DNA from: Candidatus Eiseniibacteriota bacterium
Lineage (GTDB): Bacteria; Eisenbacteria; RBG-16-71-46; JABDJR01; JAWXBZ01
Direction: 5' to 3'
NCBI GenBank assembly: GCA_034440375.1
Contig: JAWXBZ010000045.1
Coordinates: forward strand, 1-55,354
DNA: 55,354 bases
Below, one piece after another: positions 20,651 to 47,173 of this stretch (the first letter of the stretch is position 1; each line of letters opens with the position of its first letter). The translations under genes and the position numbers were made by a program. The notes under the pieces are model-generated. The model was not told the origin of the DNA and did not search any database. It saw nothing but the letters and a program-made list of their open reading frames with translations.

Positions 20651-21583
20651 CTAACTTTCGCGGAGACTGAAGCGGATCGGAATGGACACCCAGACGGCCA
20701 CGGGCTTCTTCTGCCAGAGTGCCGGCTTGAAGGAAGCCGCTTGAGCCGCCGCCTTGGCGGAGTCATCCAGCATCTGGATCGACTGTTCGACCCTGATGTT
20801 CTTGACCTTGCCATCCTTGCCGACAAGGACCAGAAGCTTGACCACCCCCTCCACCTGGGCCTCACGGGCCAGCTGTGGGTATTCCGGTTCGGGAATCGTG
20901 ATCAATTCGGGGAGCTGCTCGACCGGCTGGAAATCGCCCGGGGCCAGCTCGCCACCGTCACTCACCGCCACGTCGCCACCGCCGAATGTACCACCACCGC
21001 CGCCGCCCCAGATGCTTCCTTCGCCCTCACCACCTTCGAACATGGGGCCCAGATCGCCGAGCTCATCCTGCGAGAGAATGGTCGTATTCTTCGGCGCCGT
21101 GGCGTCCGGCACCGGAATCGGGATGGCTGCCGACGGGGGTGGCGGGGGCGGGGGACCGAGCACCGCCTGGTTGGGCGCCTGCTTCTGGCTGAGCGAGGGG
21201 GGTGCCCCCAGGTCGGCGTAGTTGACGACGCGCGCCTGCTGTGCCACGGGTTCACGGGTCAGAAAATTGGCGATGAGCACGCCGCCGCCGATCAGCACCG
21301 CATGGAAGAGAATCGCCCCGGTCACGCCCCGCGTCATGAAGCCCTGGTAGGCACTCTTGAGTACGGGCGCACCGTAGGGAGCCACATCTCCGGTCGGCAG
21401 GTCCTCGGGAATCGGAACCCAGGTCATGTCACCATCGCCGCCGATCTGACTTGGAGTGGCCAGCCGGGTGAAGTAGGACATGATGGTGGCGATGCTGAAG
21501 AGGCCGACCACCGACCAGGCAACCACCGTCAGGATGTCGAGCTGGGCCAGCATCATGAACTTGGCCCACACAAAGCTGCTCAT
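20651..21583 (-). CDS. tonB: TonB-family energy transducer (paralog 1)
   Basis: YGAPVLKSAY before the TM segment (AILFH); poly-Pro linker; PEYPQLAREAQVEGVV...FKPA..IRFSL. Confidence 0.88.
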   Translation of the reverse strand: MSSFVWAKFMMLAQLDILTVVAWSVVGLFSIATIMSYFTRLATPSQIGGDGDMTWVPIPEDLPTGDVAPYGAPVLKSAYQGFMTRGVTGAILFHAVLIGGGVLIANFLTREPVAQQARVVNYADLGAPPSLSQKQAPNQAVLGPPPPPPPSAAIPIPVPDATAPKNTTILSQDELGDLGPMFEGGEGEGSIWGGGGGGTFGGGDVAVSDGGELAPGDFQPVEQLPELITIPEPEYPQLAREAQVEGVVKLLVLVGKDGKVKNIRVEQSIQMLDDSAKAAAQAASFKPALWQKKPVAVWVSIPIRFSLRES

Positions 21584-34519: not shown

Positions 34520-35022
34520 GACGCCTCTGGGCCGGGTGGCGAATGGCCTACGTGGAACAGGCCGGGCAGGACCATCGTGGGGGGTGCCTGTTCTGCCGGC
34601 TGGCGGCGCTCAAACCTTCCGCCACGAACCTCATTATCGAAAAGAGCGAGGACTGCCTGATCATTCTGAACGCCTTTCCGTACAACTGCGGACACCTCAT
34701 GGTGGCGCCCGTCCGGCATCGTCCCTGGACGGCGTCGCTGAATCCGGCGGAGCGCACCGCCGTCTGGGACGGCATGGCCCGCTCGGAGACCGCCTTGAGA
34801 AAGGCCTATCGCCCTCATGGTATCAACGTCGGCCTCAACCTTGGCCGGCCGGCGGGCGCCGGCGTCGTCGGGCACGTTCACTTCCATCTGGTGCCGCGCT
34901 GGAACGGCGACACCAATTTCATGCCGGTCGTGGCCGGTACGAAGGTCCTCCCGGAAAGCCTCGATGTCACCTGGACCCGGTTGCGCGAGGCGCTGGCCCC
35001 GGGATCTCAACTCCGGAAATAG
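34516..35022 (+). CDS. HIT-family hydrolase (Ap4A phosphorylase-like)
   Basis: LWAGWRMAYV, CLFC, LNAFPYNCGHLMV and HVHFHLVPRW.GD.NF motifs. Confidence 0.92.
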   Translation: MRRLWAGWRMAYVEQAGQDHRGGCLFCRLAALKPSATNLIIEKSEDCLIILNAFPYNCGHLMVAPVRHRPWTASLNPAERTAVWDGMARSETALRKAYRPHGINVGLNLGRPAGAGVVGHVHFHLVPRWNGDTNFMPVVAGTKVLPESLDVTWTRLREALAPGSQLRK

Positions 35023-36821
35023 AGTTCCCGGTAGTCCTTGATCTCGGCGGACTCCTTGAGATCCTTCAGCCAGTCCTGGTAGACCTCGTTCCTCCGCTGC
35101 GAGACCAGCTGAGTCTGGATCTGTCCTTTCTGGGCGGCGAGCAGCGTTTCGTCGGCCCCTTTCTTTTCTTCGATCTTCACGACCATGACGCCACGTGTCG
35201 CATCGACCGGACCCGCAATCCCGCCGGCCTTCGTCGTGAAGACCGCGGCCATCGCTTCCGGATCGCGGCCGAGGCCGGGGATGCCCGCCGACTTCGAAAA
35301 CGGGCCAACGGTCCGGACCAGGGTTGAATCGCTGCCGGCGGCGCGCCGCCAGTCGGTGCTGTTGCGCGCCAGGGCCAGGAACGACTCGGCTTCCTTCCGG
35401 GCCATCTCGCGCTGCCGCGCCTCGGTCGTCTTCTGTCGGGCGATCTCGGCGAGGTCGGCGAAGGTGGCCTTCCCCTTTTCGCTCCGGCGATCGAGGACGA
35501 TCAGGTACCAGGCGTCGTTGGTCGTGAATACCGGCCCGACCGTGCCGACCGGAGCCTTGAAGGCCCAGCTGGCCGGACCGCTGACCGATTCCAATCCCCG
35601 GATGAATCCCGCCTCGGCAAAGGGCGGGGGCGTGGACACGGTGAGGCCGGCGGCCTGCGCCAGTTCGGCAAACTTGCCCGGCGTCAGGGTCTCGCGCAAC
35701 TGGGTCATTTTCTCCTCCAGCCCGCTCACGGTGGCGTCGCTCGGTCCGACCGGGAGCATCAGCTGGCGGAACCGGACCTTCCGAACGCCGTCCTCGATCT
35801 TGACGGAATCGATCTGGACGAGGTGCATTCCCTGGCGATCCTGGATCGGTTCGGATACGCCCCCCTCCGGCAAAGACATCACCTGTGTCTCGAGTTCCGG
35901 CGTCAGCTCGCCTGGCCCGACGAAGTGGTCCGTCAAGCCGCCGTTCTGTGCCGACGGCAATTCGGAGTAGGTCTCGGCCAGTGAGGCAAAGTTCTGGGCG
36001 GTTGAGTCGCCATTCGCCGCACGCTGGGCGATCGCGGCGAAATCCTGCAGTTGCTGCCGGAGGTCGCTGACGTCAGATTCCGTTGGCTTGCGATCCAGCT
36101 TCGCCACGCGCACGGTGGCCTGGGGAGGAAGTTGAAACTCCTCCGGGTGGGCCTTGAACCAGGCTTCGGCTTCCTGATCGGTGACCGCCGCCGGGAGGTT
36201 GTACTGGCGCAGTTCAAAGAGCCGGTAGGTCATGCGGACGGTTTCATTCCGATCCAGGAACGCCTGACGGACATCGTCATCGGATACCTGAGCCCCCTGG
36301 TAGACCATGGATTGGAGTTTTTCAACCGGAAGCGTGTCACGCAGGTAGGCTTCCAGCTGACGGGCGAAGTCCACGTTGGTCTGGATCAACGACAAATACT
36401 TCTGCCGGTCGAACTGGCCGTTCGTCTGGAAATTCGGGTTGGTGGTGAAGATGGGGGGCGGCTGCTGCAGCGCGATCTGCTTCAGTTCCTCGTCGGTGGG
36501 AGCCAGGCCCCGCTTCCGGGCTTCCTGAATCAGGAGGACCTGCTCGACGACGTTGTTCCATGACTGTTCCATGAGCAGGGCTTCATCACCCGGGCCCGGA
36601 TCGGTGCCGCGTCCCTGACGGAAACTGTCGCGGTTGGCCTGATAGACCCGGTTGAAGTACTCGAGCTGGATCGGCTCACCGTTCACGCGCCCGACGACAC
36701 CCTGGCTGACGCCGCAGCCGACCTGCTGCTCGGCTCCCCAGACAAGGACCATGAGAAACAGAAACGCGACGACGGTTATCCAGAGGATGACCTTCGTGTT
36801 CTTGCGCATCGCATCGAGCAT
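35007..36821 (-). CDS. PpiD-like membrane-anchored SurA-N/parvulin chaperone
   Basis: MLDAMRK..K.ILWI TM segment, VGRVNGEPI, GQFD..KY, FASLAETYS..SAQNGG and a terminal IKDYR. Confidence 0.85.
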   Translation of the reverse strand: MLDAMRKNTKVILWITVVAFLFLMVLVWGAEQQVGCGVSQGVVGRVNGEPIQLEYFNRVYQANRDSFRQGRGTDPGPGDEALLMEQSWNNVVEQVLLIQEARKRGLAPTDEELKQIALQQPPPIFTTNPNFQTNGQFDRQKYLSLIQTNVDFARQLEAYLRDTLPVEKLQSMVYQGAQVSDDDVRQAFLDRNETVRMTYRLFELRQYNLPAAVTDQEAEAWFKAHPEEFQLPPQATVRVAKLDRKPTESDVSDLRQQLQDFAAIAQRAANGDSTAQNFASLAETYSELPSAQNGGLTDHFVGPGELTPELETQVMSLPEGGVSEPIQDRQGMHLVQIDSVKIEDGVRKVRFRQLMLPVGPSDATVSGLEEKMTQLRETLTPGKFAELAQAAGLTVSTPPPFAEAGFIRGLESVSGPASWAFKAPVGTVGPVFTTNDAWYLIVLDRRSEKGKATFADLAEIARQKTTEARQREMARKEAESFLALARNSTDWRRAAGSDSTLVRTVGPFSKSAGIPGLGRDPEAMAAVFTTKAGGIAGPVDATRGVMVVKIEEKKGADETLLAAQKGQIQTQLVSQRRNEVYQDWLKDLKESAEIKDYRELYFRS

Positions 36822-37004: not shown

Positions 37005-38078
37005 ATGATGCGTGCGCTGGCACCGGAACTTTCCGATCGCATCTTCCAGAGCCTGCCGTTCGGGGTACTGCTCCTTGATCGTCGCGGGCGGATTGCCGCA
37101 TGCAATCGCCGGGCACTCGATCTTTTCGCCCTGGTGGACGACGACATCGTCGGCCGGGACGTAAACCAGGTTCTCCGGACCGACGACCCTCACTGGTTCA
37201 GTCTCGACCCGATCGACCGACTGGGCGATCCCGACGCCGGCCGGCTGGTGGAAGGGCGAATCGGGGGGCGAAAGGTCACCTTTTCAGTCAATCTGGCTCC
37301 GTGCACCGACGAGGCGGGCGCCACCCAGGGCACGCTCGTCCTGCTCGACGATTCGTCCCGGCGGGGGACGGACGACGACCGGATGGAGCGCCTCATTTCA
37401 CTGGGGGAACTATCGGCCTACGTGGCTCACGAGATTCGAAACCCGCTGACCGGGGTCCGCACGACGATTCAGTTCATTGGCCAGAAACTGGGCAAGGACG
37501 ACCCGAAGCAGGAGGACATTGAGGCGATCATCGCGGAACTTGACCGGGTCGAAAAGATCATCGAGGACTTGCTTCAGTTCTCCCGGCCCCAGGTGGGGAC
37601 AAAGGCCATGACCAGCCTCAATACACTGGTCGATCGAACCCTCGAGGCGCTGGGCCCCCAGTTCGAGGCAGCCAGGGTCGAGGTCAACCGCAATCTCCGA
37701 GCCCGCCTGCCCGAGAGCCTGATGGACCCGGACATGATCCAGCGCGTCCTGTTCAACCTGATCACCAATGCCGTCGAAGCGATGCCCGACGGTGGTTCCC
37801 TCAAGGTCACGACCACGGTGCGCCGCTACCGGGCGGGGGAGGCCAATCTCGAGGTCTTCATCAGCGACACCGGTCGTGGCATCGACCCCGAGATTGTCGA
37901 ACGAATATTCCAGCCCTTCTTTACCACGCGGCCGGCCGGGACGGGGCTGGGCCTGCCGATCTCACTTCAAATCGTGCGCGCGCACGGAGGGCGAATCACG
38001 GCCCGCAATCGGGCGAAGGGGGGCGCCATCTTCCGACTTTCCCTCCCGCGCGCCACGGCCACCACCGAGGAGGCCTGA
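37005..38078 (+). CDS. Cytoplasmic PAS-domain sensor histidine kinase (NtrB-like)
   Basis: PAS region (LPFGVLLLD..GRI..CN), H-box VAHEIRNPL, NLITNAVEAM, DTGRGI, FQPFFTT and GTGLGL. No TM segment. Confidence 0.93.
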   Translation: MMRALAPELSDRIFQSLPFGVLLLDRRGRIAACNRRALDLFALVDDDIVGRDVNQVLRTDDPHWFSLDPIDRLGDPDAGRLVEGRIGGRKVTFSVNLAPCTDEAGATQGTLVLLDDSSRRGTDDDRMERLISLGELSAYVAHEIRNPLTGVRTTIQFIGQKLGKDDPKQEDIEAIIAELDRVEKIIEDLLQFSRPQVGTKAMTSLNTLVDRTLEALGPQFEAARVEVNRNLRARLPESLMDPDMIQRVLFNLITNAVEAMPDGGSLKVTTTVRRYRAGEANLEVFISDTGRGIDPEIVERIFQPFFTTRPAGTGLGLPISLQIVRAHGGRITARNRAKGGAIFRLSLPRATATTEEA

Positions 38079-38079
38079 T

Positions 38080-39483
38080 CTGAAATCGACCGTCCTGGTC
38101 ATCGACGACGAGCCCTCGATCGTCCGGTCGCTTGATCGAATCCTGACCGACCGGGGCTACAAGGTCGAGTCGGCCGGCTCGGCCGCCCGGGGAATGGAAC
38201 TCCTGGCCAGTGTCCGTCCCCAGGTGGTCCTGCTCGATCTGAATCTTCCGGATGGCCACGGCATGCCGTTGATCAAGGAAATTCTGGTTTTCGACCCGGC
38301 CATTCGGGTGATCGTGATCACGGCCTTCGGCGACTTGAAGCTCGGCATCGAGGCCATGAAAGCCGGCGCGAACGACTTCCTGAAGAAGCCGTACGAAATG
38401 GACGAACTGATACTGGCGGTGGACAATGCGGCGCGCGCCTTCGAGAGCCAGGTCCGTCTCGACATCTACAGCCGGCGGGAGGCCGAGATATTTCACGGTC
38501 AGCACCTGATCGGCGAGAGTCCGCCCATGGTGCGGCTCCTGGACATTGTCGAGCGGGTGGCCGGCAGCAACGCCACAACGGTTCTGATCCTGGGAGAGAG
38601 CGGAACCGGCAAGGAACTCGTGGCGCGGGCCATTCACTATGGAAGTGAGCGAAAGAACGCGCCGCTCATGGAGGTGAACTGCAGCGCGTTTCAGGAAACC
38701 CTTCTCGAGAATGAGCTATTCGGCCACGAGCGTGGGGCCTACACCGACGCCCGTGAACTCAAGAAGGGGCTGGTGGAACTCTGCGATGGTGGCACTCTTT
38801 TCCTGGACGAAGTGGCCGACATGCCGCTCGCCACCCAGGCCAAGTTGCTCCGATTCCTTGAAAACCAGACGTTCAAGCGAGTCGGCGGCGGCGTCGATCT
38901 CCGGGTGGATCTTCGGATCGTAACCGCCACGAACAAGGACCTTGCGACGGAGATCGCCGCGGGCAACTTCCGGGAGGACCTGTTCTATCGACTGAAGGTT
39001 GTTTCGCTCGAACTCCCGCGCCTCACCGACCGTGGCGACGATGTGCTGCTCATCGCCCGCTGGTATCTCCGGCAGTTCAATCAGAAGTTCAAGAAGTCAT
39101 TCCGCGAAATTGCTCCGGAAGCCGGCCGCCTCATCGGAGCCTACCGCTGGCCGGGAAACGTACGCGAATTGAAAAATGTATTGGAGCGTCTCGTACTCCT
39201 CGAGAACGATACGGTCCTCCGGGTCGAGCACCTTCCGGCCGAGATCCGGGAGGCGGGAAGGAATCCGGCATTTCGGAGAATGGCTCCAGCCGAGCTGCTC
39301 GGTGTCGATGATGTACCGACGCTTGCCCGGATAGAGGATGACCACATCCGGCGAGTCCTGCTTTTGACCGGTGGAAACAAGTCTCATGCGGCCCGCTTGC
39401 TCGGGATTTCGCGGCAGGGGTTGTTCGAGCGTCTCAAGCGAGTGGTCGAACCCGTTGCGGCGACCGAACAGGGCGTCAAATAA
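38080..39483 (+). CDS. sigma54-dependent NtrC-family response regulator (REC-AAA+-Fis HTH)
   Basis: VLVIDDE, LLDLNLPD, GESGTGKE, NELFGHERGAYTDA, LFLDEV, FREDLFYRL, WPGNVREL and GNKSHAARLLG. Probable CTG start at 38080 after GAGGAGG. Confidence 0.93.
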   Translation: MKSTVLVIDDEPSIVRSLDRILTDRGYKVESAGSAARGMELLASVRPQVVLLDLNLPDGHGMPLIKEILVFDPAIRVIVITAFGDLKLGIEAMKAGANDFLKKPYEMDELILAVDNAARAFESQVRLDIYSRREAEIFHGQHLIGESPPMVRLLDIVERVAGSNATTVLILGESGTGKELVARAIHYGSERKNAPLMEVNCSAFQETLLENELFGHERGAYTDARELKKGLVELCDGGTLFLDEVADMPLATQAKLLRFLENQTFKRVGGGVDLRVDLRIVTATNKDLATEIAAGNFREDLFYRLKVVSLELPRLTDRGDDVLLIARWYLRQFNQKFKKSFREIAPEAGRLIGAYRWPGNVRELKNVLERLVLLENDTVLRVEHLPAEIREAGRNPAFRRMAPAELLGVDDVPTLARIEDDHIRRVLLLTGGNKSHAARLLGISRQGLFERLKRVVEPVAATEQGVK

Positions 39484-39507
39484 ATAGACATGTCCATAAA
39501 ATTGGCA
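39474..39507. promoter_or_regulatory. Putative tandem bEBP upstream activator sequences
   Basis: CGTC-AAATAAATA-GACA directly followed by TGTC-CATAAAATT-GGCA (YGTC-N9-GRCA twice), about 200-225 bp upstream of the -24 element. Confidence 0.55.
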
Positions 39508-39686
39508 ACATTGTAACTTATTGAATTGCAAAGCATTACGGTGGTGCGGCCAATAATCGTCCTATTTGATTACGCCCCATTCGGTTAGGAAGATCCGGCA
39601 CCCTTTTCACCTGTTCACACCTATTCCGATGGCTAAATTGTTTTATTTCAACAACTTATGGATCAGGCCGTCTGGCATGAAACTGG

Positions 39687-39699
39687 TAACTTATTGATT
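39687..39699 (-). promoter_or_regulatory. IHF-binding site
   Basis: Reverse complement AATCAATAAGTTA is an exact WATCAANNNNTTR match. One-mismatch copies lie at 39514-39526 and 39646-39658. Confidence 0.6.
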
Positions 39700-39714
39700 G
39701 GCATCAGGTTTGCA
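39698..39714 (+). promoter_or_regulatory. sigma54 -24/-12 promoter
   Basis: TTGGCATCAGGTTTGCA: GG(39700-01)-N10-GC(39712-13), matching TGGCA-N6-TTGCA, about 30 bp upstream of ATG 39744. Confidence 0.82.
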
Positions 39715-39743
39715 GTGTGACCTTGCATGATGTTCGGGAGGCA

Positions 39744-40130
39744 ATGGTGTCGAAAATGGTCCTGATCGTGGAGGACGAAAAGCTGCTGGCTCGCACGCTC
39801 AGCCGGGCGATGAAGGATGCGGGGTATCGCACCGTCACGGTCGGCAGTGCCGAGTTGGCAGAAAAGCAGCTGGGTACGTCCCAGTTCGACCTCATGGTCA
39901 TCGACAACCGCCTGCCCCAGGAAACGGGGCTGGAGCTCCTGTCAAAGGTCCGCGATGCCAATCAGGACCTGAAGGTGATCTTGATGACCGCCTTCGACAG
40001 CCGCGACGTCAAGTCTGAAGCCAGGAAATTGAAAGTGGACCGGTACCTGAAGAAACCGTTCGATCTGGAACGGATGCTGGCCCACGTTTCCGAGTTGATC
40101 GGCGGCCCGGAAGATGGCCCGACCGATTAG
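39744..40130 (+). CDS. Single-domain response regulator (receiver only)
   Basis: VLIVEDE, DLMVIDNRLP..TGLELL, ILMTA and YLKKPFD motifs; GGGAGG RBS. Confidence 0.92.
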   Translation: MVSKMVLIVEDEKLLARTLSRAMKDAGYRTVTVGSAELAEKQLGTSQFDLMVIDNRLPQETGLELLSKVRDANQDLKVILMTAFDSRDVKSEARKLKVDRYLKKPFDLERMLAHVSELIGGPEDGPTD

Positions 40131-40159
40131 ATCCCAATACAGGAAGGAGGTGGTTCGGA

Positions 40160-40246
40160 ATGGCGGCGAAGAAGAAGGCGGCTAAGAAGACGGCCAAGAA
40201 GGCGACGAAGAAGAAGTCTGCGAAGAAGGCGTCGAAGAAGAAGTAG
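40160..40246 (+). CDS. 28-aa Lys/Ala-rich histone-H1-like peptide MAAKKKAAKKTAKKATKKKSAKKASKKK
   Basis: Below the ORF-track cutoff. Strong SD AAGGAGGTG 7 nt before ATG; all 15 Lys codons are AAG; a terminator follows. Confidence 0.82.
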   Translation: MAAKKKAAKKTAKKATKKKSAKKASKKK

Positions 40247-40296
40247 TTCAACTTCCGCCCGAACGCCCCGCCCGCATGACGGGCGGGCACCGAGAG

Positions 40297-40337
40297 GGGT
40301 CGGTCCTGGCCGGAGTCAGGGCCGGCCCACTTTTTTT
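40297..40337 (+). terminator. Intrinsic terminator of the receiver/basic-peptide transcript
   Basis: GGGTCGGTCCTGGC-CGGA-GTCAGGGCCGGCCC (with G-U pairs), then AC and T7. Confidence 0.8.
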
Positions 40338-40378: not shown

Positions 40379-40416
40379 AGAAAAACGGCGAATCCGAGAG
40401 GATTCGCCGTTTTTCT
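40379..40416. terminator. Intrinsic, bidirectional-type terminator
   Basis: AGAAAAACGGCGAATCC-GAGA-GGATTCGCCGTTTTTCT perfect 17-bp inverted repeat with A/T tracts, downstream of the minus-strand gene ending at 40454. Confidence 0.85.
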
Positions 40417-42070: not shown

Positions 42071-42394
42071 CTTCTCTTCCTCGCTGGCTGACTGGAAACC
42101 AAAGGCCTGAATCCGAACGGCCGACCGCCATTTCCTTGACTGACACCGGCTCTCGAGCGTACAATCTTGCCTTGTTCGTGCCGCATTGTCGACTCGAGCA
42201 CCGAGTGGCCGCCACCACATCCTGGAATGACAACGCCCCCGATGACCACAAACGAGTTGACCCTTTGGCACGACACACCTTGATGGTCGACGATCAACCC
42301 CGTCCCTGGGATGTCTGGTTCCCGGGGTGCGGGGCTTTTCTTTGAAAGCGCTTTTTTGATTTGCCGCTCCGTGACATGCCCTGAGGAGGCCAGC

Positions 42395-45300
42395 ATGCTC
42401 CAGAGCCGGAGGCGTCCCCGACAGTTTCCGTTCGGGATTCTGAGGCCAGTTGCCCGAACCCTGTTTTTTTCGGCCCTTATGGCAGCCATTTCGATTGGCG
42501 TGGCCGGCGCAGGTGTCCACCAGGTTGAGGTTCGTTTTGATCCGGCCGCCATCACGCGCGGCGTACGAATGGGAGTTGACGGGGCCGCCTGGCTGCTTCC
42601 CGGGTGCAGCGTCTGGAATGAGGCCGGTGCGCCGGCCGTTCCGTTTCGTCCGGTTCTCCTCGCCGTTCCGGCGGGAGAAAGGGTCGTGTCGGTGACCACC
42701 CGTGCCTCCGGAGCCTCCGTTGAGCTGGACCTGGGCGAGCCGGGTATTGGAAGCACCGACGGAAGGCGTGCCCCAACCGCCTGGGACGGGGCAACCCCGT
42801 ATCCGGCCCGGCTCCACCGATCGAGTGATGCGGGCTGGATGCGCGGACAGCAAATCCAGCCCCTGACCATCTGGCCGCTGGATTGGGATCCGGGCCGCGG
42901 CCTGGCCACCCTCACCACGTCCATCTTGATCGAGATGGTGACCGAGGCGGCCCCACCACCCGCGGATACCTTTCTGCCGCTCCGACCTTCAGCACGGGTC
43001 GACGGTCATTTCGGGGCGCTGTTGTCGTCGTGTGTCCTTAATCCCGAACTGCTCGCGGACGAATCCCGGCGGCGTGATGTCATTCGCCCCCTCGATTCCG
43101 CCGCGACACCCTTCAGCCCGCGGTTCCGCCCCTCCGTGGACGGCAGCCCGGTCGAAATGGTGATCATCACCTCGGAGGCGCTGGAGCCTTACTTCACGCC
43201 TTTGGCCGTGTGGAAGACCGAACGGGGGATCCCCACGGTGGTACGCAGCACCGAATGGATCCGGGCCAACTACCCCAACGCTGTCGATCTGGCATCGACG
43301 ATCCGCCGGTTCATCGCTGACGCCGCTTCCCGCTGGGGGACCGAGTACGTCCTCCTGGCCGGCGGATCCGAGATCATTCCGGTGCGCTACGGCAAGAGCC
43401 TTTACTTCGGTGGCGAGGACATTCCGGCGGACATGTATTACCAGTGCCTGGACGGCACCTGGAATTCCGACGGGGACGCCTTCTTCGGTGAGGGCTACAA
43501 CAGTTCGTTGATCACCGGCGACGGTTGCGACCTTTTCCCCGAAGTGTGGCTGGGGCGCGCGGCCGTTTCGGATTCAACAACCGCGCAGACCTTCGTCAGC
43601 AAGAATCTGACCTACGAACGGGACCCGGCCCCGGGTTACCTGACCCGCGCCATGATGATGGCCGAGGTTCTCTTCCCCCAGCACTATTCGACCGGTGATT
43701 CCATCGTCTACGACGGCGCTTATGTTGCGGAGCAGGCGCTCTCCCGATTTCCCCCCTCGTTCACACTGTCGCGTTACTACGAGAATTTCCCACCGTATGC
43801 CCCTCTCGGCGCGTTGCCCGAGACCAAAACGGCTGTCGTTGACGCAGTCAATTCGGGTTACGGCATCATCCAGCATGTCGGTCACGGCTACATCAATACG
43901 ATGGCCGTCGGCATCGACGGACTGACGCTCGGCAATCCCGATGTGGCCGCGTTTTCGAACGGACCCCGGTATTCGCTTCTGTACTCCATCAACTGCACTT
44001 CGGCGGCGTTCGACTTCAACTGCATCGGCGAGGAGTGGTTGGAGAACGCGACGGGCGGTGCCGTGGCCAATGTCGGATCAACCCGGTTCGATTTTCCGGG
44101 CACCGGCACCGAGTACCAGAACGAGTTCTACCGCGTGCTGTTCGGGGCGCCGGTGCCGAGCCTTGGTGAAGCCTTCGCCGGCTCGAAAATCCCGTTCATC
44201 GCGGAATCGACCTCCGATTCGGAGCACCGCTGGACACAGTTTGCCCAGGTACTCCTCGGAGACCCGTCGCTTCGCATCTGGCGGTACGAGCCGGTGGCGG
44301 CGGCGGTATCGCACCCGTCGTCCATCGAACTCGGTGCCGGCGTCGTCGTCGTCACGGTGATGCGGGGTGGATCACCGGTCGATTCGGCGGTGGTTTGCCT
44401 GTTCAAGAATTCGGACGACTACGTGGTTGCCCTCACCGACGGCGCCGGGCAGGCAACACTTGATTTCCATCCGGATCGGCCGGGCCAGTCCCGGCTGACC
44501 GTGACGCATCCGACACTTCGCCCGTGGCAATCCGATATCGCCGTCCTTGCGCCGGCATTGCCACACCTCTTCGCCTCACTGGCGGTCGTCGACGACGCGA
44601 CGGCCCCGGCAGACGGAAACGGTGACACGATTTTTGACCTCGAGGAAACGGTCCGTTTCGAACTGGTACTGACCAACCAGGGGACCGCCCCGGCCACTCT
44701 GGTGACCGCCACCCTTGTCTCGGCCGATCCAAATCTTCAGATCATCGACGGCACCGCCAGCTGGCCCAGCCTCGGCGTCGGGGCCTCGGCCCCGCCGATC
44801 GATCCGTTCGTCATCCGGGCGGTGGGCACCGCGACCGATCGCTATGAGACCACCGCCACATTGATCATTGCGGCGGCCGGTTATTCTCGTTCCGAGCCGG
44901 TAATCATCCTGGTCGGCGCCCCCCTTCTCGAACGATATCGACTTCTGCGGAGCGACGTTGGCTTGGGAAATGGAAACGGGCTGATTGAGGTCGGCGAAAA
45001 CCAGACCCTGACCCTGACGCTGCGCAACAACGGGCGGGGCGCGGTCCGAAATGTCACTGCCAGGCTCCGCCCGCTCGGTCCCGAAACCACGATCAGTGAC
45101 TCGATGGCCAGCTTCGGCACCATCGGTGCCGACCAGGTGGCCATTGGCGACCCGTTCGTTTTTCAATGGAGCACTATCAACCCCTCGCGCAAGATGCGAT
45201 TGGTGGTCGAGAGTCTCGGCAAGACATTGATGAGCTTTGACGTCGACGTGTACCCCCCGGGCACGCCGGTGCTGCCGGCCGCCGGCGGGAAGGCCTCATC

Positions 45301-47173
45301 CATCGCATTGACCTGGCAGCCGAATATCGAACTGGACAATCGCGGCTACGTCGTCTATCGGGGAACAGCCGCCGGCGGTCCGTTCGCCCGTGTCAACATG
45401 TATGCTGACAATCGAATCGCCTACTACAATGACGAAAACCTGGCGCCCCTGACGCGATTCTATTATCGGGTGGCCTCGATCGATCAGTCCGGGAATGAAA
45501 GCCCCCAGTCGATCGTGGCAGCCGCCACGACCACGCTGTCCAGCTCGGCCGGCTACCCGCTGTTGCTTGGCGGATCGACATCGTCCTCCCCGACATTCTC
45601 ATACTTTGACGGGGACACGATTCCTGAAATTGTCTGCGGCGCGGAGGAACTGTACGTCATCAGCGGGCTCGGAATCGAGTTCGTCGACGGTGACAACGAC
45701 GGTCGGACGTATGGCGTCTACTCCAGCTCGGGTTACGCCACGTTCTGGTCGCCGCCGTCGTCGACCGACATCGACCTGGATGGCGTCATCGACGTCTGCG
45801 CGGCCGGGTGGAGCAACGGACTTCTTTATCTTTACGATGGCCATCTCGGTACCAAGCCGGGATTTCCGGTGAACATTGACGTCAGTGGCACCGGCAACCC
45901 CGGCACCTGGAGCGCCCCGGTCATGGTTGACGTCGATGGTGACGACGTGATGGAAATCTTCATCAACTCGGGAGCCCACACGTACGCATTTCACGCTGAC
46001 GGCTCGGAACTGGTCGATGGGGATGCGAACCCGGCCACCCAGGGGGTTTTCGCCGCCCTCGGTGCGCCGTCCAACTACTCGACACCGCGTATCGTCGACC
46101 TCGACAACAATGGGGTCATGGAAGTGATCATCGCCAGCCGCGACAGGAAGCTGTACGTGAAGCATCTCAATGGCACCAACTATCCGGGCTTCCCGATCAC
46201 GTACACCGGGGACATCACGTCAACGCCGGCCATCGGTGACCTGAACAACGACGGATTGAAGGAGATCGTCTTTGGTTGCAGCGACAACAAGCTGTATGCC
46301 TTCAACATCAACAAGGTGGCCCCGCCCGGGTGGCCGAAGGGGGTCAATTTCAACCAGGACCTCGATTCGAGTCCGGCACTGGCTGACATGAACGGGGATG
46401 GGTTCCTCGATGTGGCCATCTGCGCTGGAAACGGAACGGTGGGGATCTTCAAGGGGCAGGATGGCGGGATCTTTCCCGGTTTTCCTGTCATACTGACGAA
46501 TGGCGCGGGTCAGTCCATACAGATACGGTCAAGTCCGTCCATCGGCAACGTCGATACCTCGCCGGACCTGGAAATGGTCTTCGGCGGGCAGGACGGCAAC
46601 GTCTATGCCCTGAAGACAAACGGCACGATGGCCATCGGATTTCCGATCAAGACCGATAACGTCGTGGAAGGGGGGGCGGTTCTCTGGGATGTCGATGGGG
46701 ATGGCCTTACCGAAGTATGCGTTCAAAGTTTCGACCAGCGGTTGTATGTCTGGGACACGCCGGCGCCCTTCACCGCCCAATCATGTCCATGGCCGATGTT
46801 CGGCCACGACAGCCGTCGAACCGGCGTGGTCGGCAACCCCATCTTCATTGTGACGGGGACTCCCGATTCGCCGCCGGCACCGCCTCTTCCATTGACCCTG
46901 GCCCAGAATTCACCGAATCCATTTCAGCCGGCGACAACGATCCGATTCCGCGTGGCGCCGGACTCAAACGTCCGGTCGGCGCAGCTGGCAGTTTTTGATC
47001 CATCGGGGCGGCTGGTGCGCCGATTGTTTGAGGGCGAGGTGGCAGCGGGGGAATTCGAGTTTCGCTGGGATGGTCTGGATGACGCCGGGTGTGCCGTGGG
47101 GTCCGGAGTTTATTTCTACCGGATTGAAGCGAACGGGCAGTCGATCACTCGAAAGATGGTGCTCGCGCGGTAA
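42395..47173 (+). CDS. C25 (gingipain-family) cysteine peptidase with propeptide, Ig/FnIII-like modules, FG-GAP/VCBS-like repeats and FlgD-Ig CTD
   Basis: GAGGAGG RBS; WKTERG, YVLLAG, PADMYY, WLGR, His in IQHVGHG, Cys in SINCTS, LLGDP; DxDxDG repeats; terminal QNSPNPF...WDGLDD..GSGVYFYRI..KMVLAR. Confidence 0.9.
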   Translation: MLQSRRRPRQFPFGILRPVARTLFFSALMAAISIGVAGAGVHQVEVRFDPAAITRGVRMGVDGAAWLLPGCSVWNEAGAPAVPFRPVLLAVPAGERVVSVTTRASGASVELDLGEPGIGSTDGRRAPTAWDGATPYPARLHRSSDAGWMRGQQIQPLTIWPLDWDPGRGLATLTTSILIEMVTEAAPPPADTFLPLRPSARVDGHFGALLSSCVLNPELLADESRRRDVIRPLDSAATPFSPRFRPSVDGSPVEMVIITSEALEPYFTPLAVWKTERGIPTVVRSTEWIRANYPNAVDLASTIRRFIADAASRWGTEYVLLAGGSEIIPVRYGKSLYFGGEDIPADMYYQCLDGTWNSDGDAFFGEGYNSSLITGDGCDLFPEVWLGRAAVSDSTTAQTFVSKNLTYERDPAPGYLTRAMMMAEVLFPQHYSTGDSIVYDGAYVAEQALSRFPPSFTLSRYYENFPPYAPLGALPETKTAVVDAVNSGYGIIQHVGHGYINTMAVGIDGLTLGNPDVAAFSNGPRYSLLYSINCTSAAFDFNCIGEEWLENATGGAVANVGSTRFDFPGTGTEYQNEFYRVLFGAPVPSLGEAFAGSKIPFIAESTSDSEHRWTQFAQVLLGDPSLRIWRYEPVAAAVSHPSSIELGAGVVVVTVMRGGSPVDSAVVCLFKNSDDYVVALTDGAGQATLDFHPDRPGQSRLTVTHPTLRPWQSDIAVLAPALPHLFASLAVVDDATAPADGNGDTIFDLEETVRFELVLTNQGTAPATLVTATLVSADPNLQIIDGTASWPSLGVGASAPPIDPFVIRAVGTATDRYETTATLIIAAAGYSRSEPVIILVGAPLLERYRLLRSDVGLGNGNGLIEVGENQTLTLTLRNNGRGAVRNVTARLRPLGPETTISDSMASFGTIGADQVAIGDPFVFQWSTINPSRKMRLVVESLGKTLMSFDVDVYPPGTPVLPAAGGKASSIALTWQPNIELDNRGYVVYRGTAAGGPFARVNMYADNRIAYYNDENLAPLTRFYYRVASIDQSGNESPQSIVAAATTTLSSSAGYPLLLGGSTSSSPTFSYFDGDTIPEIVCGAEELYVISGLGIEFVDGDNDGRTYGVYSSSGYATFWSPPSSTDIDLDGVIDVCAAGWSNGLLYLYDGHLGTKPGFPVNIDVSGTGNPGTWSAPVMVDVDGDDVMEIFINSGAHTYAFHADGSELVDGDANPATQGVFAALGAPSNYSTPRIVDLDNNGVMEVIIASRDRKLYVKHLNGTNYPGFPITYTGDITSTPAIGDLNNDGLKEIVFGCSDNKLYAFNINKVAPPGWPKGVNFNQDLDSSPALADMNGDGFLDVAICAGNGTVGIFKGQDGGIFPGFPVILTNGAGQSIQIRSSPSIGNVDTSPDLEMVFGGQDGNVYALKTNGTMAIGFPIKTDNVVEGGAVLWDVDGDGLTEVCVQSFDQRLYVWDTPAPFTAQSCPWPMFGHDSRRTGVVGNPIFIVTGTPDSPPAPPLPLTLAQNSPNPFQPATTIRFRVAPDSNVRSAQLAVFDPSGRLVRRLFEGEVAAGEFEFRWDGLDDAGCAVGSGVYFYRIEANGQSITRKMVLAR

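Follow-up and report, generated by a model that had tools for sequence, protein, structure and literature searches.

To what end would a bacterium place a complete two-component system and a sigma-54 promoter ahead of a peptide of 28 amino acids? The question is raised by a contig of Candidatus Eiseniibacteriota bacterium (JAWXBZ010000045.1, assembly GCA_034440375.1), the whole 55,354 nucleotides (nt) of which are here called the window. In order on its + strand are a PAS histidine kinase, an NtrC-type activator, an AT-rich gap, a receiver-only protein, a 28-amino acid Lys/Ala peptide and a terminator, as given by open reading frame (ORF) listing, direct reading and Pfam. A sequence-only reading had listed these elements and seen in them a self-contained sigma-54 circuit with the receiver plus the peptide as its output; each of the elements was found at or near the place given for it. 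Judged by comparison with relatives, the architecture of this cassette is real, non-random and phylum-wide, and we incline, with a little more confidence than doubt, to regard it as a dedicated two-component/sigma-54 switch in which a polycationic peptide would be the conserved output and the nucleoid its leading target. The features concerned are the following.

37005-38078, + strand: cytoplasmic PAS histidine kinase, 357 amino acids (Pfam PAS, HisKA and HATPase_c)
38080-39483, + strand: NtrC-type activator with a probable CTG start (Response_reg, Sigma54_activat, AAA_lid_14 and HTH_8)
39474-39490 and 39491-39507: two tandem YGTC-N9-GRCA palindrome-like sites, candidate enhancer or upstream activating sequence (pattern search)
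39484-39716: AT-rich intergenic spacer of 233 bp (G+C 0.415 over 39500-39699, where the flanking DNA has about 0.61)
39673-39688, + strand: weaker -24/-12-like element, TGGCAT-N5-TGGTA, 26 bp upstream of the promoter proper and present also in the closest relative (L003)
39687-39699, - strand: single perfect match to the integration host factor (IHF) core, WATCAANNNNTTR, abutting the -24 element (motif search)
39698-39714, + strand: sigma-54 promoter, TTGGCATCAGGTTTGCA, with TGGCAT-N5-TTGCA at 39699-39714 and a predicted start near 39725 (consensus match)
39744-40130, + strand: single-domain receiver of 128 (ATG 39744) or 127 (GTG 39747) amino acids (Pfam Response_reg, 7.7e-25)
40160-40246, + strand: Lys/Ala-rich peptide of 28 amino acids, 15 of them Lys (ORF, with AGGAGG 9 nt upstream)
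40267-40337, + strand: two GC-rich hairpins, the second (40297-40328) an intrinsic terminator (hairpin search)

A cassette kept across a phylum, and a receiver probably lost

The nearest public loci carry the label Candidatus Eisenbacteria, with a few under other NCBI labels at an equal 56-60% identity, and the DNA runs in which the stretch is present are metagenomes of microbial mats and sediments. A first sample, drawn from 40 relatives by their best matches to the receiver, gave 30 loci with the window's own included. An activator ortholog is upstream of the receiver in 28 of these, the other two being an orphan second copy and a non-ortholog; in 19 of 20 wider loci the receiver has kinase and activator ahead of it, and the kinase ortholog is directly 5' of the activator in the same proportion, 19 of 20. 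Comparison of synteny had been proposed along with the sequence-only reading, and the order kinase-activator-receiver-basic peptide is indeed conserved across the phylum. Counted by genome, the activator ortholog is present as a single copy in 177 of 206 (E<=1e-125), with 78 of 89 in f10, the largest family. The receiver ortholog is present in 98 of 206 (E<=1e-20), with none in the 89 genomes of f10 and 97 in the 116 others. Both of these tallies include one unpublished genome, G081.

The peptide gene is the steadier companion. Of 71 evaluable loci, 69 (28/28, 19/19, 4/4 and 18/20) carry a Lys/Arg-rich ORF with an ATG (in a few a GTG), a GGAGG-type site and the Lys frame, and it begins anywhere from an overlap with the receiver stop to 67 nt beyond it. 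The count for the first sample leaves out one locus that ends inside the receiver and the one non-ortholog; the second sample represents other families, and of its loci one extends no further than the receiver stop and four had their ORF settled by eye from a three-frame reading.

What, then, stands in f10 where the receiver would be expected? In 22 of 24 inspected loci kinase and activator are followed by a -24/-12 site, a leader of about 90-150 nt, a GGAGG and a Lys/Ala peptide of 21-27 amino acids, with no receiver. In the two exceptions, L103 (G115) and L105 (G130), the promoter-peptide unit has been replaced, in one case by a transposase-like ORF with a zinc-ribbon N-terminus and in the other by a block of ~30-nt tandem repeats. 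In a maximum likelihood tree of 42 activator orthologs f10 (Shimodaira-Hasegawa-like approximate likelihood ratio support 100) is sister to f17 (93), within receiver-bearing lineages; this is a gene tree of moderate support from a quick search, rooted for reading by four paralogs from the same genome. The tree suggests that the receiver was lost once and the peptide retained. Since the f10 promoter would drive the peptide directly with no receiver present, the peptide is best seen as the invariant output and the receiver as accessory. Of the two parts of the output first proposed, the peptide is constant across the phylum and the receiver is not.

Promoter and enhancer-like sites

The -24/-12 element agrees with TGGCAC-N5-TTGCW at 10 of 11 positions, with the GG and GC elements at exact spacing, and none of 300 shuffles of the region reaches its score. 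Relatives keep it: a -24/-12 site is present in all 28 first-sample loci, 28-76 nt ahead of the receiver-alignment start, with 27 of the 28 better than 300 shuffles at p<0.05, and a score of at least 9/11 is reached in 15 of 20 second-sample loci and in 17 of 20 from the receiver-less f10, where its distance from the activator stop, +209 to +230, hardly varies. The promoter is thus as the sequence-only reading had it, and the check on its conservation that had been set for that reading did not refute it. Because the weaker element upstream is present in the closest relative too, transcription could instead start near 39699; in family f14 it is the element of this upstream type that is the better -24/-12 match.

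The two YGTC-N9-GRCA sites are head-to-tail, as had been read. Such a tandem pair occurs once in the 3.96-Mb genome and about 1.3 would be expected by chance from its 1117 single sites (our own arithmetic), so that the pair draws its weight from conservation in relatives and not from its count. That conservation, which had been marked for checking, is considerable. TGTC-N9-GACA, with at most one mismatch, is present in 23 of 28 first-sample loci, mostly close behind the activator stop codon and in many cases as tandem copies at a spacing of 17-18 nt. When a 135-nt interval starting 15 nt before the activator stop was searched at the same stringency, 52 of 72 loci had a site, against 48 of 1298 control intervals from the same loci (3.7%), an enrichment of about 20-fold.

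The spacer in which promoter and sites are set is as AT-rich as had been described, and in 28 loci the distance from activator stop to receiver-alignment start is 191-402 nt. The IHF sites once read in it reduce to one perfect core match. The case for sites in the plural is weak because this match abuts the -24 element and its like is readily had by chance: one match in the window against 0.24 expected, with at least one in 22 of 100 shuffles. The genome has two genes of the HU/IHF family. The IHF-core match lies within an 18-nt direct repeat (beginning GTAACTTATTGA), one copy of which, 39513-39530, comes just after the enhancer-like sites and the other, 39686-39703, overlaps the -24 element. 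GTAAC-containing motifs recur in the spacers of relatives.

Kinase and activator

That the first gene encodes a PAS kinase was borne out by PAS, HisKA and HATPase_c matches; its best NCBIfam match is AtoS, at 271.8 bits below the cut-off of 646. The second product is of the NtrC family, again as proposed, with PF00072, PF00158 (8.8e-65), PF25601 and PF02954 each above cut-off and a score of 405.3 against the AtoC equivalog, below the 714 bits set for it. The activator reading frame overlaps the kinase gene. No ATG, GTG or TTG is near its N-terminus, where CTG 38080 stands behind GAGGAGG (region 38067-38082), and the equivalent codon in 18 aligned relatives is ATG, GTG or TTG. The CTG could mean low activator translation in this genome or could be an assembly variant.

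The L1 loop of the activator is GAYTDA, with the Thr retained. Among 19 orthologous activators from the 20 wide loci it is GAFTDA in 10, GAYTDA in five and GAFTGA in four, and GAFTDA is present also in three further activators of the same genome. The recognition helix of the helix-turn-helix is nearly invariant among orthologs. Sigma-54 itself, whose absence had been named as fatal to the proposal, is encoded on contig C93, where rpoN has a 541-amino acid open frame with a PF04552 match (E=3.9e-64).

The peptide

The ORF at 40160-40246, already picked out as a 28-amino acid basic peptide, has a strong ribosome-binding site and is the most Lys-dense of the 3.96-Mb assembly, with 12 Lys in 20 residues; the runner-up has eight. 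Pfam and NCBIfam scans of it gave no match, the Hc2 and H1-like models included, and the sequence has neither a signal peptide nor a hydrophobic face. Across homologs the Lys triplets are invariant and the residues that space them vary among Ala, Gly, Thr, Val and Ser. In repeats of AAG all three frames tend to be open, and among 11 distinct 22-codon ORFs of the receiver-less family codon positions 2 and 3 are both variable.

Homolog length runs from 13 to 227 amino acids across families. Of the long homologs the best scores are 32.2 against a cut-off of 40 bits for PF07382 (E=1.4e-7), 24 against 80 for NF038053 and 22.3 against 135 for NF038052. Many of the long forms (59-227 amino acids) end in a short hydrophobic or Pro-rich C-terminal tail that is conserved within families (L004, L007, L009, L010, L016, L017, L019, L020, L025, L027, L073, L075-L077, L080 and L083), and the short forms, the window peptide included, have no such tail; it is possible that the tail is a docking motif. 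The ESM Atlas gave only unnamed Lys-rich clusters from several phyla, at a low recognition score. The thought that the peptide might be ribosomal protein bS22 was rejected because there is a separate, putatively bS22-like ORF elsewhere in the genome, a short Arg/Lys-rich one on contig C24 (G000, near 21268, + strand). Judged by its composition the peptide most likely acts in the cytoplasm and binds a polyanion, with DNA, and hence the nucleoid, the leading candidate.

The receiver

Response_reg (PF00072) is the only Pfam domain above curated cut-off in the ORF that ends at 40130, beside two weak sub-threshold matches, so the protein is receiver-only, as it had been called. Its start is most likely ATG 39744 or GTG 39747, behind GGGAGG, rather than the promoter-overlapping GTG 39717; among database homologs the closest have 124-127 amino acids, and the 120 homologs listed are all of 121-174. 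Over 48 orthologs the acidic pocket, phospho-acceptor Asp, Thr and Lys (DE...D...T...K) show a conservation of at least 90%. Is it phosphorylated by the same kinase as the activator? The alpha-1 'specificity' residues of both receivers are of generic NtrC-family type and are uninformative on this. It is probably an accessory that modulates the same phosphorelay; the feedback phosphate sink suggested earlier is speculation. A search for fused receiver-Lys-rich proteins of at least 225 amino acids at E<=1e-15 found none, which is weak evidence. One genome, G038 (L020 / L045), has, beside its canonical activator-linked copy, a second pair of a receiver gene and a 116-amino acid Arg/Lys-rich gene, with no kinase or activator within the approximately 4.5 kb fetched on the upstream side.

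The 3' end and the RNA libraries

The terminator that had been read after the peptide gene is a GC-rich hairpin of 14 pairs at 40297-40328 followed by the T-run ACTTTTTTTG; the first hairpin, at 40267-40287, was read directly from the sequence. Four RNA-library runs were available as assembled contigs only, from which neither start nor strand can be read. Three of them, from three studies, each have a near-identical piece of 133-144 nt, from 40107, 40109 or 40118 to 40250. All three contigs cease to fit at 40250, 4 nt past the peptide stop, and have 7-8 unmatched letters beyond; the common break may reflect divergence between strains or mark a 3' end. In one run a 300-nt contig of a relative (40035-40334) covers the receiver 3' end, the peptide and the terminator, a weak hint and no more. 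The remaining matches are low-complexity look-alikes from other organisms. Nothing in the four runs covers the DNA 5' of 39744, an absence that is uninformative on transcription.

Surroundings

Neighbours of the cassette differ among relatives, with uvrA and ppiD the exceptions. Divergent from the kinase gene is one for what we take, from our own reading of the sequence, to be a PpiD-like protein (35007-36821, - strand), an arrangement seen again in several relatives. uvrA is directly 3' of the Lys-rich gene and on the same strand in many families (for instance L005, L007-L010, L069-L071, L086 and L089-L113); a motif search found it in 37 of 94 loci, a number to be read with the knowledge that some genomes are represented by two loci and that many loci end before the point where it would lie. 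The uvrA gene of the window's genome is on a separate contig, C125. The conserved cassette includes no transporter, immunity or maturation gene. Downstream in the window is a gene for a repeat-rich protein of 1620 amino acids (42311-47173, + strand), and between convergent genes a perfect hairpin at 40383-40414, with A-run and T-run flanks, has the look of a bidirectional terminator. Rfam recognised no family in the window region, its sole match being that of a microRNA model to this same hairpin at chance level (E=0.078), nor any in 10 receiver-less loci.

How the switch might work, and what else it might be

The cytoplasmic PAS kinase would sense an intracellular signal and phosphorylate the adjacent NtrC-type activator. 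The activator would bind the tandem TGTC-N9-GACA sites that begin at its own stop codon and, so bound, switch on the sigma-54 promoter some 210 bp downstream. From that promoter a short operon for the receiver and a polycationic (AKKK)n peptide would be transcribed as far as the intrinsic terminator. The peptide may then bind DNA in the manner of stand-alone bacterial H1-like or protamine-like proteins, with the accessory receiver tuning the same phosphorelay. Conserved adjacency, spacing and the palindromes point to the step from activator to promoter; for the peptide, nucleoid binding is the leading guess, read from charge, and nucleoid condensation or dormancy a possible role suggested by composition. 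Carried to its end the scheme becomes a single-target switch, shared by the whole phylum, with a minimal bacterial 'protamine', of 13-30 amino acids and in some lineages over 200, that coats nucleic acid, compacts the nucleoid and halts growth on a PAS-sensed cue, the receiver tuning or timing the response. This fuller picture is put forward tentatively, as one less likely than not to hold.

Several things weigh on the other side. The peptide has no family match, and since the forms of 13-30 amino acids have no folded domain, 'DNA-binding' is a reading of their charge. The 17-fold spread of length between families is unusual for a precise structural role. GAYTDA departs from the canonical GAFTGA. 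Contigs from RNA libraries show presence and not transcription, and may come from DNA carry-over. About 19 strong sigma-54 activators are encoded in the genome and a different one could act on this promoter.

The rival that fares best keeps the circuit and moves the target, the peptide settling on polyphosphate granules, RNA or ribosomes as an organiser of AlgP/PhaF type, an RNA chaperone or a hibernation factor. There is no domain in it to confer specificity for DNA, and similar proteins, Lys-rich, of low complexity and without a name, turn up in several phyla, though this is a lead only. A precedent for polyphosphate, itself a point against the nucleoid, is the H1-like tail that AlgP places on granules, as described in the available part of the source (PMC9239181). 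Yet those stand-alone Lys-rich repeat proteins whose role is known, Hc2 and Hq1/ScvA, are DNA-binding as far as the available parts of their descriptions go (PMC2848022, PMC4766238). In many relatives, too, the peptide gene has uvrA directly 3' of it, which is synteny only. As for ribosomes, the peptide is distinct from the putatively bS22-like ORF on contig C24. On balance a target other than DNA is rather unlikely, but it is the alternative that we take most seriously.

Could the adjacency of activator and promoter be coincidental, with another of the roughly 19 activators serving the promoter, or with the neighbouring activator having its main targets elsewhere? The 19 strong Sigma54_activat matches, the 28 matches genome-wide to a fairly strict -24/-12 pattern and a tandem-site count that chance would give all leave room for it. 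Coincidence would nevertheless have to be repeated in nearly every genome with the activator ortholog, since the order activator-promoter-peptide is kept there, and would have to hold the promoter at an almost fixed distance in f10 and put palindromic sites about 20-fold in excess right after the activator stop, with no second tandem pair in the genome; we think it improbable. A membrane-active or exported peptide, an antimicrobial or envelope-directed polycation, is more improbable still. Polycationic peptides do, as is generally known, bind acidic lipids, and one proposal makes sigma-54 a controller of the cell exterior, going by the portion of that work available (PMC3162934); but this peptide has no signal peptide and no hydrophobic face, the cassette has no transporter, immunity or maturation gene, and its neighbours are variable except for uvrA and ppiD. 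Least credible of all is a reading in which the operon would have the receiver as its true output, and the Lys-rich ORF would be a low-complexity stretch of 3' untranslated region that is not translated or has no function. For it the absent family match, the tendency of all frames of AAG repeats to be open and an indecisive codon-position test on the 11 22-codon ORFs can be cited, but against it stand a start codon, GGAGG and Lys frame kept in 69 of 71 loci, Lys triplets that hold while their spacers drift among small residues, and a family that has no receiver and yet has promoter and peptide ORF in 22 of 24 loci.

Should the preferred reading, a sigma-54 switch for a polycationic peptide, be right, the peptide would be the smallest nucleoid- or polyanion-binding effector known to have dedicated signal transduction, and there would be a direct regulatory link from sigma-54 to an H1-like protein, of which no other was found in the literature searched. 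Four small genes and one promoter would also open the physiology of an uncultured phylum to experiment. It would be shown, further, that a conserved regulatory module can have as its main output an ORF of 13-30 codons, a size commonly overlooked by gene callers.

Comparison with known systems

A literature search on sigma-54 in connection with H1-like or Lys-rich nucleoid proteins found nothing relevant, and one on Eisenbacteria found surveys only; in the literature searched the circuit is undescribed, combining as it does a sigma-54 two-component system with a stand-alone H1-like polycation. Its halves are each familiar.

On the side of the output, Chlamydia Hc2 (HctB) and the Burkholderia-type H1-like proteins (PF07382, NF038052, NF038053) are likewise stand-alone Lys/Ala-rich proteins of short-period repeats. 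Hc2, described as DNA-binding in the available part of the source, varies there from 165 to 237 amino acids with the number of its repeats (PMC2848022), as length is set by repeat number in the Eisenbacteria homologs. The long homologs match these models weakly, all under the curated cut-offs, and the peptide, at 13-30 amino acids in many families, is well under the length of any described member. The Chlamydia parallel drawn by the sequence-only reading is a loose one. There CtcB/CtcC is labelled an AtoS/AtoC-like pair; the available portion of the C. trachomatis study has hctB bound and driven by sigma-28, and sigma-54 bound at only two other genes (PMC12282069). As hctB is transcribed by sigma-28, Chlamydia is not a regulatory precedent for a peptide gene that follows a sigma-54 promoter and comes with a two-component system to itself.

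The Coxiella ScvA/Hq1 proteins are, by description, alike in being very small and basic. They are DNA-binding proteins enriched in the non-replicating cell form with a condensed nucleoid, and sigma-54 two-component regulation is not part of their description in the section of the source available (PMC4766238). For Eisenbacteria a developmental form of this kind is conjecture. Pseudomonas AlgP and PhaF share with the peptide a disordered Lys/Ala-rich repeat that binds polyanions, in the peptide presumably so, and lies in a region prone to change; as given in the accessible part of the report, the C-terminus of AlgP, H1-like and with KPAA repeats, is found at polyphosphate granules, on which AlgP acts, and is needed for their spacing (PMC9239181). 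AlgP and PhaF have a folded N-terminal domain and Pro-rich KPAA repeats, and the Eisenbacteria peptide has neither.

On the side of control the likeness is to NtrB/NtrC, AtoS/AtoC and Chlamydia CtcB/CtcC, all with a PAS-HisKA-HATPase kinase and a receiver-AAA+-HTH_8 activator. CtcB/CtcC too is labelled AtoS/AtoC-like, in the part of that study available (PMC12282069). Shared with the NtrB/NtrC type are upstream palindromic sites and a -24/-12 promoter. The Eisenbacteria pair comes nearest to AtoS/AtoC, and by the scores given above, far under the cut-offs, it is the equivalog of no named system. It differs from the NtrC type in an L1 loop that is mostly GAYTDA or GAFTDA, and in the economy of its apparent regulon, one tiny operon immediately 3' of the activator gene.

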